Shown: one piece after another, positions 4,957 to 21,760 of the stretch | How the letters are laid out: each line of letters opens with the position of its first letter | Numbering within the stretch: position 1 is the first letter of the stretch | Program-made: the position numbers and the translations under genes | Assembly: GCA_018819925.1 (NCBI GenBank) | Contig: JAHJPG010000096.1 | Location: forward strand, 207 to 64,206 | DNA length: 64,000 nt | Direction of reading: 5' to 3' | From: Pseudomonadota bacterium | GTDB lineage: Bacteria > Desulfobacterota > Desulfarculia > Desulfarculales > Desulfarculaceae | The notes under the pieces: generated by a model | What the model was told of the DNA's origin: nothing | Database searches by the model: none | The model's input: only the letters and a program-made list of their open reading frames with translations

Positions 4957-4984
4957 TTGACAAAAAACGGTCAGGGGCGATACT
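4957..4984 (+). promoter_or_regulatory. sigma70-like promoter of trp leader/trpE operon
   Basis: TTGACA-16bp-GATACT; -35 overlapped by an 11-bp inverted repeat. Confidence 0.6.
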
Positions 4985-5011
4985 GACACCATCAAGGGAG
5001 TTGTATACGAA

Positions 5012-5152
5012 ATGCAAAAAGTCCTAACCAACCCGGCCGACATGAGCGCCCGCCAAATGGCGAAAGGCGCTTTCGCACCGGTGTTTGGTGGCTGGCTTTA
5101 TTGGTGGCGTTCACCCATGACGGTGCGCTCCGCCGGGGAGAAGCCAACCTAG
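5012..5152 (+). CDS. trpL: Trp-rich leader peptide (46 aa, ...GAFAPVFGGWLYWWRSP...)
   Basis: AAGGGAG RBS then ATG at 5012, TAG at 5150-5152; W-L-Y-W-W-R; followed by an intrinsic terminator and trpE. Confidence 0.85.
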   Translation: MQKVLTNPADMSARQMAKGAFAPVFGGWLYWWRSPMTVRSAGEKPT

Positions 5153-5181
5153 GCCTTTAAACTCCCAAGCCAGACAGCGAG

Positions 5182-5214
5182 CCCACCGTCAAAGTGACGG
5201 TGGGTTTTTCTTTT
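5182..5214 (+). terminator. attenuator terminator before trpE
   Basis: CCCACCGTCA-AAG-TGACGGTGGG followed by TTTTTCTTTT; the 5' arm can alternatively pair with TGACGGTG at 5118-5125. Confidence 0.9.
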
Positions 5215-5230
5215 GCCGCGAAGGATAATA

Positions 5231-18111: not shown

Positions 18112-18369
18112 CCCGCATATTTCATGAGGGTTGGGTGACATTCAACAACAAATCCGTATTCAGAGGGTCGTTATGAAAAAAGTATTCACAATATCAATGT
18201 ACAGTTTGTACCCATCACCGGCACAGCCAGCAGCCGGCAGACAAGGCGTCTGGCAAGCGAGGGCCGCAGGCGTAGCTAAAGCTACGTCGAGGCCCGAGCG
18301 CGGCCAGCAACACCGTATGTCGGTGGCTGGCGCAGCCGGACACACGGCTCTCATGAAATATGCGGGCTA
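18109..18369. mobile_element. 261-bp MITE-like element with perfect 20-bp terminal inverted repeats (copy 1)
   Basis: TAGCCCGCATATTTCATGAG (18109-28) / CTCATGAAATATGCGGGCTA (18350-69); colinear second copy at 61424-61684; no transposase. Confidence 0.85.
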
Positions 18370-18371
18370 AG

Positions 18372-19169
18372 ATGGCCGCATCCGACCTGGGCGTGCTGGC
18401 CCGCATCCTGGAGGCCAAACGGGAGGAGGTGGCCGCGCTAAAGGCCGCCAGGCCCCTGGCCGGGCTGCGCCGGGAGGCCGAGGCCGCCCCGCCGGCCCGC
18501 CCCTTCCTGGGCGCCCTGCGGGGTCACCCCCGCGTGCCGGTGATCGCCGAGATAAAGCGGCGCTCGCCCTCCCGGGGAGAGTTGGCCCCCGGGGAGGGGG
18601 TTCAGGCCAGGGCCCGGGCCTACCAGGCCGGGGGCGCGGCGGCTCTGTCGGTGCTCACCGATATGCCCTTTTTCGGCGGCTCCTTGGAAGATCTGGCCGC
18701 CGCCCGCCAGGCGGTGGACCTGCCCGCCCTGCGCAAGGACTTCATCATCGACCCGGCCCAGATTTATGAGGCCCGGGCGGCCGGGGCCGATGCGGTGCTC
18801 TTGATCGCCGCCTCCCTGGAAGCTCCCTTGCTGGCCGAGTTGTACCACCTTGCCAAGGGCCTGGGCTTGGATGTGCTCATTGAGGTGCATAAGGCCGAAG
18901 AACTGGAGCCGGTGCTGGCCCTGGACCCGCCCCTGGTGGGCATCAACAATCGCGACCTCAAGACCCTGGCCGTGCGCCTGGACACCAGCCTGGAGCTGCG
19001 CCGACTCATCCCGGCGGGCATTACCGTGGTGGCCGAGAGCGGCATTGATGGGCCGGAGCAGGTGAGGGGGCTGCGCGCCGCCGGATTGGACGCCTTTTTG
19101 GTGGGCACCAGCCTCATGCTGGCCCCGGACCCCGCAGCCACCCTGCGCGGCCTGGTGGAGACGGCATGA
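18372..19169 (+). CDS. trpC: indole-3-glycerol phosphate synthase (alternative start 18360 inside MITE TIR)
   Basis: VIAEIKRRSPSRG, ALSVLTD..FFGGS, LRKDFII..QI.EAR..GADAVLLI, GINNRDL, VAESGI. Confidence 0.96.
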   Translation: MAASDLGVLARILEAKREEVAALKAARPLAGLRREAEAAPPARPFLGALRGHPRVPVIAEIKRRSPSRGELAPGEGVQARARAYQAGGAAALSVLTDMPFFGGSLEDLAAARQAVDLPALRKDFIIDPAQIYEARAAGADAVLLIAASLEAPLLAELYHLAKGLGLDVLIEVHKAEELEPVLALDPPLVGINNRDLKTLAVRLDTSLELRRLIPAGITVVAESGIDGPEQVRGLRAAGLDAFLVGTSLMLAPDPAATLRGLVETA

Positions 19170-19774
19170 TTCCCAGGATCAAGATATGCGGCATAACCAA
19201 CTTGGCCGACGCCCTGGCCGCCTGCCGGTTGGGTGCCGACGCCTTGGGCTTCGTCTTGGCCCCCAGCCCCCGCCAGGTGAGCCCGGATCAAGCCAGGGCC
19301 ATCATCGCCCAGCTTCCCCCTCTGGTGGGCACGGTGGGGGTGTTCGTGGACGCCCCGCCGGTGGAGGTGTCCGTGCTGCGGCGTTACTGCGGCCTGGACT
19401 GGGTGCAGCTCCACGGCGACGAAGACGAGGACCAGGCAGCCATGCAGTGGCCCCGGGTGATAAAGGCCCTGAGGGTGGCCCCGGGCCGGGAGCCGGACCC
19501 GGCGGCCTATCCCGGCTGCGCCCTTTTGCTGGACACCTACCACCCCCAAGAGGCCGGGGGCACGGGGCAGAGCTTCGACTGGGGCCTGGCCGTGGACATC
19601 GCCCGGCGACGCCCGATTATCCTGGCTGGGGGCCTGAACCCGGACAACGTGGCCCGGGCCATAGAGCAAGTTCAACCATATGCCGTGGACGTTTCCAGCG
19701 GCGTGGAAAAAGAGAAAGGCGTCAAAGACCATGAGCGCATCGCAAGCTTCATTGCCCAAGTCCGGCGGGGCTAA
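19166..19774 (+). CDS. trpF: phosphoribosylanthranilate isomerase
   Basis: [59 protein letters not shown]. Confidence 0.96.
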
Positions 19775-20960
19775 ACCCCTGCCTGACGAACTGGGGCACT
19801 TCGGCCCCTACGGCGGGCGCTTCGTGCCCGAAAACCTCATGCCCGCCCTGGAAGAGCTGCACGCCGCCTATCTGACCGCCCAGGAGGACCCGGCCTTTGG
19901 CGAGGAGTTGGACGATCTCTTGGCCAACTACGCCGGACGGCCCACTCCCCTGTACGAGGCCAAGAACCTCACCAGGGCCTTGGGCGGGGGGCGCATATTC
20001 CTCAAGCGCGAGGACCTCACCCACACCGGGGCCCACAAGATAAACAACGCCCTGGGCCAGGTGCTCCTGGCCCGGCGCATGGGCAAAAAGCGCATCATCG
20101 CCGAGACCGGGGCCGGCCAGCACGGGGTGGCCACGGCCACGGTGGCCGCCCTCATGGGCATGAAGTGCATGGTTTACATGGGCACCCTGGACATGGAGCG
20201 TCAGGCGCTCAACGTGACCCGCATGCAGATGCTGGGGGCCACGGTGGAGCCGGTGACCAGCGGCAGCTGTTCGCTGAAGGACGCCACCACCCAGGCCATC
20301 CGCGACTGGGTGACCAACGTGGGGGACACTCACTACATCATCGGCTCGGTGGTGGGCCCCCATCCCTATCCCATGCTGGTGCGCGGCTTCCAGTCGGTGA
20401 TCGGTAAGGAGGCCAGAGCCCAGCTTTTGGAGCGAGAGGGCAAGCTCCCCAAGGCGGCGGTGGCCTGCGTGGGCGCGGGCAGCAACGCCATCGGCCTGTT
20501 CCATCCATTGCTTGACGACCCGGTGGACCTAATCGGGGTGGAGGCGGCGGGTCACGGCCTGGACAGCGGGGAGCACTCGGCCAGCCTCACCGCCGGACGG
20601 CCCGGCGTGCTGCACGGCTCCAGCCTGTATTTGCTGCAAGATCCCAACGGCCAGATCATCGAGGCCTACTCCATGGCCGCTGGCCTGGATTACCCCGGGG
20701 TGGGGCCGGAGCACAGCCACCTAAAAGACATCGAGCGGGCCACCTATGCCACGGTGGACGACAAGGCGGCGGTGAAGGCCTTCGGGGATTTGGCAAGGTA
20801 CGAGGGCATCATTCCCGCCTTGGAGAGCGCCCACGCCCTGGCCCATCTCAAGGATCTGGCCCCCCGCTACGCCAAGGACGACATTATTCTGGTGTGCCTA
20901 TCCGGCCGGGGAGACAAGGACGTGTCCCAGGTGGCCGCCTATCTGGAGAAACAGCGATGA
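19731..20960 (+). CDS. trpB: tryptophan synthase beta chain
   Basis: [70 protein letters not shown]; start ATG 19731. Confidence 0.97.
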
Positions 20961-21760
20961 ATCCCGATCTGCGCGAAAAATTCGCCGCCGCGGCCCAGCA
21001 GGGCCGGGCCGCCTTTGTGCCCTATGTCACCGGCGGCTTTCCCGACGCCGACACCTGCCTGGAGCTGATCCTGGCCCTGGATGAGTTGGGTTCCGAGGTG
21101 ATCGAGGTGGGCATACCCTTTTCCGACCCCCTGGCCGACGGCCCCACTATTCAGCTCTCCAGCCAAAAGGCCCTGGAGGCCGGAGCCACCCCCGCCAAGG
21201 TGCTGGACACCATGGCGCGGGCCGCAGCCAAGACCAAGGCCGCCCTGGTGACCATGACCTACGTCAACCCGGTGCTGGCCATGGGCTACGAGGAGTTCGC
21301 CCGCCGGGCCTCCGGGTCCGGGGTCAGCGGGGTGATAATCCCCGACCTTCCCCCCGAGGAGGCCGGCCAGTGGCTTCAGGCCTGCCAAACCCACGGCTTG
21401 GACCCGGTGTTCATGGCCGCCCCGGGCACCCCCATGGAGCGCCTGGACCGCATCTTGGCGGTGGGCGGTGGCTTTTTGTACTACGTGTCCATGGATGGCG
21501 TGACCGGCGCGGACCTGGAATTGGGCCCGGAGCGCCTGGCGGCCATGCAGCGGGTGCGCGCCCGCTCCTCTTTGCCCGTGGCGGTGGGCTTCGGGGTGGC
21601 CACCCCGGCCCAGGCCGCCGCCCTGGCCCCGGTGGCCGACGGGGTGGTGGTGGGCAGCGCTCTGGTGCGCCAGGTGCATCAAGCCAAGACGCCCCAAGAG
21701 GCGGTGGAGGCGGTGCGGGGATTGGCCGGGGAACTGCGCCAGGCCTTGTTGGTGCGCTAA
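20957..21760 (+). CDS. trpA: tryptophan synthase alpha chain
   Basis: [62 protein letters not shown]. Confidence 0.97.

Follow-up and report, generated by a model that had tools for sequence, protein, structure and literature searches.

The question posed by a locus on contig JAHJPG010000096.1 of a Desulfarculaceae bacterium, a relative of sulfate reducers (assembly GCA_018819925.1), is how 16 contiguous, co-oriented genes of aromatic amino-acid biosynthesis are controlled. The locus lies within a stretch of 64,000 nucleotides (nt), referred to below as the window, and all of its features described here are on the forward (+) strand. Four short open reading frames (ORFs) with clustered codons for aromatic amino acids precede the structural genes, one before trpE, one before aroF2 and two in tandem before trpD, and a preliminary description of the locus had interpreted them as the leader peptides of four ribosome-stalling attenuators. 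The comparative analysis reported here makes it very probable that these elements are functional leader-peptide (ribosome-mediated) transcription attenuators, a judgment that builds on the layout of the sequence, its conservation, the covariation of its helices and their geometry, all of which were established directly.

Each of the four leader ORFs has a start codon, a nearby purine-rich stretch read as a putative Shine-Dalgarno-like sequence, and a stop codon. Leader 1 (5012-5152) encodes 46 amino acids (aa), including the run W-L-Y-W-W-R (...FGGWLYWWRSPMTVRSAGEKPT), with Trp codons at 5093-5095 and 5102-5107. Leader 2 (13532-13645) encodes 37 aa if read from the conserved MTG start (MTGRAEIMIDGQGRFSSGDVFFYFYYFTAVCPRAGEG); an alternative start lies at 13553, and the C-terminal portion, ...VFFYFYYFTAVCPRAGEG, holds the run FFYFYYF at 13592-13612. 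Leader 3 (16732-16803; 23 aa, MFNTAWRYWWRNWNRSGPPAPGR) contains W-R-Y-W-W-R-N-W, and leader 4 (16893-16976; 27 aa, MNIERHTFQGVYGWRWWRFTKRESVLP), which belongs to the second of the tandem attenuators, contains W-R-W-W-R in a C-terminal portion ending ...GVYGWRWWRFTKRESVLP. All four ORFs are intact in orthologs. The control runs match the genes that follow, WLYWW, WRYWW and WRWW standing ahead of trp genes and FFYFYYF ahead of aroF2-pheA-tyrA. The common core proposed earlier for the three Trp leaders is legible as W-LY-WW, W-RY-WW and W-R-WW in leaders 1, 3 and 4, and the nucleotide string TGGTGGCGTT(T)CACC reported as shared by two of them is present at 5102-5115 and 16938-16952.

Every leader ORF is followed by a strong, GC-rich hairpin with the features of an intrinsic terminator. 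Terminator 1 (5179-5215) consists of a 13-bp stem (hairpin 5179-5207, -21.3 kcal/mol) and a U-tract; terminator 2 (13673-13717) of a hairpin at 13673-13710 (-28.9 kcal/mol; -28.3 for 13673-13709) and a T-run; terminator 3 (16828-16874) of a 16-bp stem (hairpin 16828-16866, -34.4 kcal/mol) and a T-run; and terminator 4 (17004-17044) of a hairpin at 17004-17032 (-23.3 kcal/mol) and a T-run. Within each leader ORF, shortly past the control codons, lies a candidate antiterminator arm, which in all four cases, as read directly from the sequence, is a perfect 8-9-nt complement of the 5' arm of its own terminator. Arm 1 is TGACGGTG (5118-5125), which pairs with CACCGTCA (5184-5191) and begins 10 nt past the last Trp codon. 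The corresponding pairs are GTCTGCCCA (13619-13627) with TGGGCAGAC (13680-13688) for arm 2, GTGGTCCAC (16778-16786) with GTGGACCAC (16837-16845) for arm 3 and GGGAGTCCG (16957-16965) with CGGACTCCC (17007-17015) for arm 4, at 6, 7 and 13 nt past the last control codon, respectively. The shared geometry put forward in the preliminary description, with an arm placed 6-13 nt past the last control codon, was thereby confirmed base by base.

The position of these hairpins relative to the structural genes bears on an alternative in which leader translation mainly affects how well the downstream message is translated or how stable it is, by re-initiation or by unmasking of the ribosome-binding site, and not termination of transcription. 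Leader ORFs have indeed been proposed to boost downstream translation (PMC4833913). In this locus, however, every hairpin has its U-tract, 21-28 nt separate its end from the start codon of the structural gene, the purine-rich stretch in front of that gene sits 3' of the stem, and the leader stop codons lie about 80-130 nt 5' of the structural-gene start codons, so that this alternative is considered improbable.

Since spurious Trp-rich ORFs are common in this genome of 63.5% GC, conservation was taken as the deciding test. Orthologous loci were collected by a scan for relatives of pheA, which yielded metagenome-assembled genomes of Desulfarculaceae, Desulfocarbo indianensis, Dethiosulfatarculus sandiegensis and others. 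The order of the 16 genes, together with leaders that carry equal control runs at equal places, recurs in Desulfarculales loci from several genera, and all four leaders are conserved at the same positions across the order; the check that the preliminary description had itself proposed, a search for the same leaders in orthologous loci, is thus passed clearly across the Desulfarculales. The N-terminal halves of the peptides diverge freely between genera; the control codons are kept, and so is the nucleotide sequence of the RNA arms. A role as functional peptides was also considered for the conserved tails RSPMTV, TAVCP and RESVLP and was rejected, as they overlie the RNA arms and it is their nucleotides, not their residues, that follow the pairing partner.

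Two covariance models were built to trace the elements, R1 from the aroF2 leader and R2 from the scaffold of the trpE leader. Within the order, R1 has matches in 33 of 37 genomes, in 22 of the 23 high-quality genomes and in all nine of the nine genera, and R2 in 29 of 37 genomes and eight of nine genera. An intact ORF with seven or eight Phe/Tyr codons per eight residues accompanies each of the R1 matches examined in the order (27/27). Of six genera whose loci could be read, four, drawn from both families of the order, have tandem attenuators before trpD; some species have a single attenuator at this place (loci L038/L115, L118, L119, L124 and L120). Desulfocarbo indianensis (L008/L117) possesses all four leaders, and Desulfarculus baarsii DSM 2075 (L121) possesses the aroF2 leader.

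Covariation was assessed most fully for the aroF2 leader, of which 32 distinct sequences were aligned to the model's terminator alone, so that the alignment is unbiased toward the antiterminator. The 9 bp of the antiterminator are 98.9% paired in this alignment, slid controls reach 29-41%, and three of the antiterminator pairs show compensatory double changes; none of 500 shuffles attained the observed pairing or covariation score. For the terminator of the same leader the paired fraction is 99.2%, and five of the pairs are compensatory. A G-to-A change occurs in individual sequences at two positions of the arm that both helices share, and it is accompanied by C-to-U changes in the antiterminator arm as well as in the 3' arm of the terminator, which is the pattern expected under selection on both of the competing helices. 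At the second trpD leader the pairing GGGAGUCCG:CGGACUCCC of this genus is replaced in sister genera by GGUCUGCCC:GGGCAGACC, by GGUCUGUCC:GGACAGACC or by a G-U intermediate, the sister-genus consensus at the site of arm 4 being GGUCUGYCC:GGRCAGACC. The two sequence groups of this leader pair in different alignment registers, which precludes a joint helix count over the genera, and in a subgroup of five sequences the count is too small for significance. Arm 1 is either invariant or compensated across orthologs, the pairing in the trpE leader being UGACGGUG:CACCGUCA here, AGGCGGUG:CACCGCCU in the second family of the order and GGUGGGCUC:GAGCCCACC in another genus.

Conservation and covariation also weigh strongly against a more trivial interpretation, in which the hairpins, as ordinary terminators, end operons or act as barriers to read-through and the small ORFs are reading frames that arose by chance and sense nothing. 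The high frequency of spurious Trp-rich ORFs at this GC content speaks for chance frames, and so, for ordinary terminators, does the fact that the sequence scan revealed no clear terminator closing unit 1 (13421-13531) or unit 2 (16676-16731), which implies that the leader terminators also halt read-through from upstream. Yet the ORFs remain open with the control runs in place across dozens of genomes while their flanks diverge, the terminator and its competing arm covary, and the control amino acid fits the downstream pathway every time, including F-only, Y-rich and W-rich variants built on one scaffold. This interpretation is therefore hardly credible.

Whether a stalled ribosome would free the antiterminator arm was addressed with a masking model, in which the RNA was cut after the 5' arm of the terminator and, codon by codon, the nucleotides from -15 to +13 relative to the A site were masked. 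As long as the ribosome has not moved beyond the control codons, the predicted upstream pairing of the terminator 5' arm is about 0.7-0.9, and it drops to about 0.3-0.5 within one to four codons of the last effective control codon; for leader 2 the drop occurs on the final control codons themselves. The result was obtained in the window and in most orthologs. According to this profile, stalling on the control codons would still spare the antiterminator arm and stalling any further on would not, a placement that defines the design of a leader-peptide attenuator.

Several results weigh against attenuation by a stalled ribosome or complicate it. The full-length leader RNA always folds into the terminator at equilibrium (P > 0.9), whether a ribosome is masked or not, which means that the switch must be kinetic, as it is in Escherichia coli. 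The masking model fails in two orthologs of leader 1 (L004 and L050). The leader 2 antiterminator forms in the truncated RNA even without a ribosome, so that in the model basal termination at this leader would require either that a ribosome cover the arm or that a weak 1:2 (protector) pairing form, for which covariation gave no support; candidate 1:2 pairings lie at 5074-5080/5121-5127 and 13534-13547/13613-13625, and their conservation is unconvincing. Arms located 6-7 nt past the last control codon are inside the footprint of a ribosome stalled there, and hence only the earlier codons of each run can be effective. Finally, the scaffold of leader 1 is near-invariant within the genus, where its support comes mostly from conservation and not from covariation. 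Taken with the covariation of both helices and the modelled release of the arms beside a ribosome stalled at the control codons, the attenuation reading of the preliminary description is nevertheless upheld at the strength given above.

Under the mechanism envisaged, each leader RNA would be translated during its own transcription. Under a shortage of the charged tRNA (tRNA-Trp in three of the leaders, tRNA-Phe or tRNA-Tyr in one), the ribosome would stall on the clustered control codons and leave the 8-9-nt arm 3' of its footprint free to pair with the emerging 5' arm of the terminator, whose formation would be blocked, and RNA polymerase would go on to transcribe the operon. With an ample supply of the amino acid, the ribosome would move on over the arm, the terminator hairpin and its U-tract would form and transcription would stop. 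Leader translation, read-through dependent on amino-acid supply and the physiological logic that follows from them are inferred from sequence. Leader 1 would gate, in response to Trp, trpEG, one DAHP (3-deoxy-D-arabinoheptulosonate 7-phosphate) synthase and the whole shikimate pathway; leader 2 would gate, in response to Phe/Tyr, a second DAHP synthase along with pheA and tyrA; and leaders 3 and 4, both responding to Trp and placed in series, would gate trpDCFBA, where the need for two successful stalls would make the response steeper and tighter.

Alternative hairpins alone do not reveal what drives the switch, and a mechanism that dispenses with translation, such as a TRAP-like protein, T-box-like sensing of uncharged tRNA or a small-molecule riboswitch, could in principle use the same RNA. 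A search of the region against Rfam at a permissive threshold gave no family at threshold, the sub-threshold matches being to Trp_leader and, by chance, to microRNAs and small nucleolar RNAs; Trp_leader (RF00513) matched 5096-5213 with 19.7 bits (E = 6.2) against a gathering score of 41, and the other leaders did not match it. The T-box model (RF00230) matched neither the region nor any other part of the genome. Moreover, the feature that is conserved is an open reading frame with runs of codons, and where paralogous elements differ in specificity, the change sits in the codons and not in the RNA scaffold. A translation-free switch is thus very improbable, more so than an effect on downstream translation.

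The change in codons mentioned above was recognized in elements outside the cluster. A crude screen of the whole genome for terminators with a short, codon-biased ORF in front of them, which also returned many false Trp-rich ORFs, identified a fifth aromatic attenuator on another contig (C145:47926-48115), with the control run FFYFYYY. It precedes aroF3, which encodes a third DAHP synthase (attenuator and gene, C145:47926-49243, equivalent to locus L082:3927-5244), and this Tyr/Phe-rich leader would gate that enzyme in the same manner. The claim that the aromatic regulon is complete in the window could therefore not be sustained, the more so as no aminotransferase gene is present within the 16-gene cluster. 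The same screen gave no convincing His, Leu, Ile/Val or Thr leaders, although the genes following weak matches were left unchecked and the absence of such leaders is unproven.

The fifth leader, MNHQRGQFKSQDATAGVLPRSAAFFYFYYYAPATETVSLPGVRKV, ends in ...AAFFYFYYYAPATETVSLPGVRKV and is followed by the terminator AGCCCACCGTCTTCGGACGGTGGGCT; its arm and terminator, GAGACGGTGAGC ... GCCCACCGTC-loop-GACGGTGGGC, are those of the trpE-leader scaffold. A second copy matching R2 is present in most species of the genus, and five of ten extra R2 matches that were fetched precede aroF3 orthologs, with runs made up mostly of Tyr (YYYYY, YLYYYYY and RYYYYYF). In other Desulfarculales genera (L250, L251 and L253) the scaffold carries GWWWWR before trpC, FFYFYYW before aroA and F-R-F-F-G-F before a pheA paralog, and in other genera it also carries W-rich codons before trpE. 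A second scaffold, GUCUGCCC ... GGCCAUGGGCAGAC, is common to the aroF2 leader and, in sister genera, to the second trpD leader. These observations support the view that the scaffolds have been reused, with the sensed amino acid reset by a change of codons, and they extend the earlier suggestion that one module had been duplicated: the trpE and aroF3 leaders appear to be built on one scaffold, and the aroF2 and second trpD leaders (the latter in sister genera) on another.

The aroF leader is not peculiar to the Desulfarculales, and comparison of sequences indicates that it occurs across the phylum. Among genomes sampled evenly across the Desulfobacterota, R1 has matches in 168 of 401 (42%), which represent 106 of 254 genera. 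Twenty of the matches were fetched. In 17 there is a leader ORF rich in aromatic residues that has the same ...VCP... tail (the codons of the antiterminator arm), and in 15 the downstream ORF is a close match to aroF-type DAHP synthases, two more giving only distant matches. Many of the phylum-wide leaders include Trp, for example FNFWFYFYYYYVTPVCP, and the Desulfarculales aroF2 leader does not, which fits the presence of separate Trp-sensing units in that order. An exact-pattern scan found the terminator module in records of Desulfarculaceae, Desulfomonilaceae, Syntrophales, Syntrophobacterales and Desulfobacterales. Other wirings were encountered as well. In two loci of the Desulfomonilaceae type (L024 and L025, on the minus strand), a leader with YYWWYFY (...SYYWWYFYVPAGG) stands before aroF-aroA-aroC-aroKB-aroQ and an internal leader with NNWWWRW (...NNWWWRWISEYWRSACG) before trpE-trpG. 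In loci of Flavobacteriia (L046-L066), leaders of the FFFYFYFY type, such as MNTLNAYFSFFFYFYFYVKEGTLYA, are each accompanied by a terminator and in many cases lie directly 5' of pheA.

A separate question is whether attenuation is the sole layer of control. The promoter-like sites of the three units are P1 (4957-4984, TTGACA-16-GATACT), which would serve the trpEG-aro unit and scored 10/12 in a consensus scan, P2 (13452-13480, TTGACA-17-TTTACT) and P3 (TTGACC-17-TAATTT, followed by the palindrome TGTATACA at 16702-16709; together 16672-16709), the latter two having been recognized by reading the sequence. TTGACA of P1 and TTGACA plus GTTTAC of P2 are kept in orthologs. The preliminary description had assigned every unit a promoter, one or more leaders and a terminator; the leaders, the leader terminators and P1 hold up, whereas only P1 exceeds the threshold of the consensus scan, P2 and P3 being weaker TTGAC-17-TxxxxT matches, and the ends of units 1 and 2 are without a clear terminator. 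A GTATAC palindrome core, rare in the genome and kept at the Trp-type leaders, is located at 5003-5008, 4 nt 5' of the ATG of leader 1; the version of the palindrome at the trpE leader is TTGTATACGA.

The palindrome resembles the operator of some further regulator and may represent a putative second layer of control. Under this proposal the attenuators are real and a DNA-binding regulator acting on TGTATACA also controls the Trp-type and aroF3 promoters, as TrpR acts beside attenuation in E. coli; it adds to attenuation and does not compete with it. The full motif has six copies in the 4.03-Mb genome, where the GTATAC core has 154, and two of the six lie between a promoter and a leader, one of them ahead of the first trpD leader and the other ahead of that of aroF3 (C145:47891). 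At the promoters of the trpE and trpD leaders the palindrome is kept in four genera, often doubled and at a varying offset from the -35 box, and it was found at none of the aroF2 leader promoters examined. On the other side, a profile search for a TrpR homolog (PF01371) was negative in this genome and positive in control genomes, no candidate regulator has been identified, the core is short (8 bp), and at some loci the motif overlaps the -10 position and could be a feature of the promoter or the transcript start. Such a regulator is thus regarded as a tentative possibility, well short of the confidence placed in the attenuators themselves.

The genes downstream of the leaders occupy 5231-21760, and a scan with NCBIfam profiles named every one of the 16, as had been claimed. 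Unit 1 (5231-13420; also supported by Pfam and synteny) comprises trpE (5231-6619), trpG (6616-7248), aroF1, which encodes a type I-beta DAHP synthase (7261-8301), aroA (8298-9548), aroE (ending at 10363), an aroK-aroB fusion (10360-11919), aroC (11922-12983) and aroQ (ending at 13420). Unit 2 (13773-16675; also supported by Pfam) contains the second DAHP synthase gene, aroF2 (13773-14675), pheA for chorismate mutase-prephenate dehydratase (14688-15821) and tyrA (15824-16675), and unit 3 (17065-21760; also supported by synteny) contains trpD (17065-18111), trpC (ending at 19169), trpF (19166-19774), trpB (ending at 20960) and trpA (20957-21760). By Pfam, AroF1, which is under a Trp leader, and AroF3 have an N-terminal ferredoxin-like (FXD) regulatory domain and AroF2 has none; for that reason control of aroF2 may possibly be exerted at the RNA level alone. 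Because no convincing terminator closes units 1 and 2, read-through transcripts would reach the next attenuator, as in a supraoperon, and read-through from one unit into the next is possible. The stop codon of tyrA falls within the -35 box of P3.

Unit 3 is split between trpD and trpC by an insert of about 260 nt (18109-18369) that resembles a miniature inverted-repeat transposable element. It is bounded by terminal inverted repeats of about 17 nt (CCCGCATATTTCATGAG), which have eight matches in the genome, and folds into a long hairpin (-131 kcal/mol). The trpD/trpC junction is tight, without the insert, in most orthologous loci, including all of the close relatives.

Among known systems, the elements are most like trpL-trpEDCBA and pheL-pheA of E. 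coli, with which they share the Yanofsky model: a short leader with clustered control codons, the same W-W-R motif, antiterminator and terminator hairpins that exclude each other, and an intrinsic terminator immediately ahead of the first gene. They differ from the E. coli leaders in lacking sequence relatedness to them or membership in the Trp_leader covariance model (19.7 versus 41 bits), in the greater length of the leaders (23-46 aa) with a stop codon well past the antiterminator arm, in the lack of a clearly established 1:2 protector helix and in the mixture of Phe and Tyr in one leader; moreover, the E. coli trp system has a TrpR partner that was not found in this genome. In Bacillus subtilis, the aromatic supraoperon aroFBH-trpEDCFBA-hisC-tyrA-aroE has an internal trp attenuator that is driven by binding of TRAP to (G/U)AG repeats. 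As in that supraoperon, genes of the common pathway, Trp and Tyr biosynthesis form one co-oriented cluster in which internal switches would gate read-through from upstream; unlike it, the present cluster would depend on translated leaders and not on TRAP, has another gene order and contains four attenuators instead of one.

In function, leaders 2 and 5 come closest to aroR of Corynebacterium glutamicum, which, on the account of Neshat et al. 2014 given in PMC11802643, is a mixed Phe/Tyr leader that attenuates an operon headed by the DAHP synthase gene aroF. The aroR leader belongs to another phylum and has a short F-Y-F run, compared with seven consecutive F/Y codons here; the element described here is part of a family that extends over the phylum and has a conserved ...VCP... 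tail along with a GGCCAUGGGCAGAC terminator. Tandem arrangements have also been reported: the Salmonella mgtCBR leader contains tandem leader-ORF attenuators whose two ORFs sense different signals (PMC3641672), and tandem THI riboswitch elements have been predicted in Desulfovibrio in a study that did not treat trp genes (PMC545781, Rodionov et al. 2004). Both resemble the trpD leader in having two complete sensing and termination modules placed serially in one 5' leader; unlike in mgtCBR, both modules here would sense one amino acid through leader peptides. A literature search turned up no report of attenuators from Desulfarculus or its delta-proteobacterial relatives, a group that broad surveys of attenuation may nonetheless cover, and the conserved element family, which is absent from Rfam, seems to be unrecorded.

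The mechanism itself is textbook Yanofsky attenuation, and analogous elements are widespread; what stands out is the reuse of scaffolds with codon-swapped specificity, the placement in series of two attenuators for the same signal and the wiring of three DAHP synthase paralogs to five sensors. The branch-point logic outlined above is a putative scheme and an incomplete one, in that the fifth attenuator with the third DAHP synthase, the TGTATACA layer and possible read-through between units would all have to be added to it. The evidence leans, by a modest margin, toward a broader hypothesis, that a family of paralogous aromatic attenuators, ancient and so far unrecorded, exists in the Desulfobacterota and draws on two or more reusable scaffolds (GCCCACCGYC...GRCGGUGGG and GGCCAUGGGCAGAC...GCCCAUGGCC), the specificity of which would have been reset repeatedly by exchange of control codons (Trp, Tyr, Phe or mixed) as the scaffold moved among trpE, trpC, aroA, pheA and the three DAHP synthase paralogs. 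In the Desulfarculales, the outcome would be an isoenzyme-style feedback circuit with five ribosome sensors, two of them in series, possibly complemented by a TGTATACA-binding regulator.

The value of these findings lies in annotation, comparative regulation and evolution, not in new biochemistry. They identify a widespread RNA element 5' of DAHP synthase genes that current RNA family libraries leave without annotation, and they provide, for a group of poorly studied anaerobes, a testable regulatory map of aromatic amino-acid synthesis that would operate through ribosome-sensed switches only. The family also offers what may be a natural example of attenuator evolution, in which a scaffold is duplicated, a codon swap changes the amino acid that is sensed and the copies can be stacked in series.

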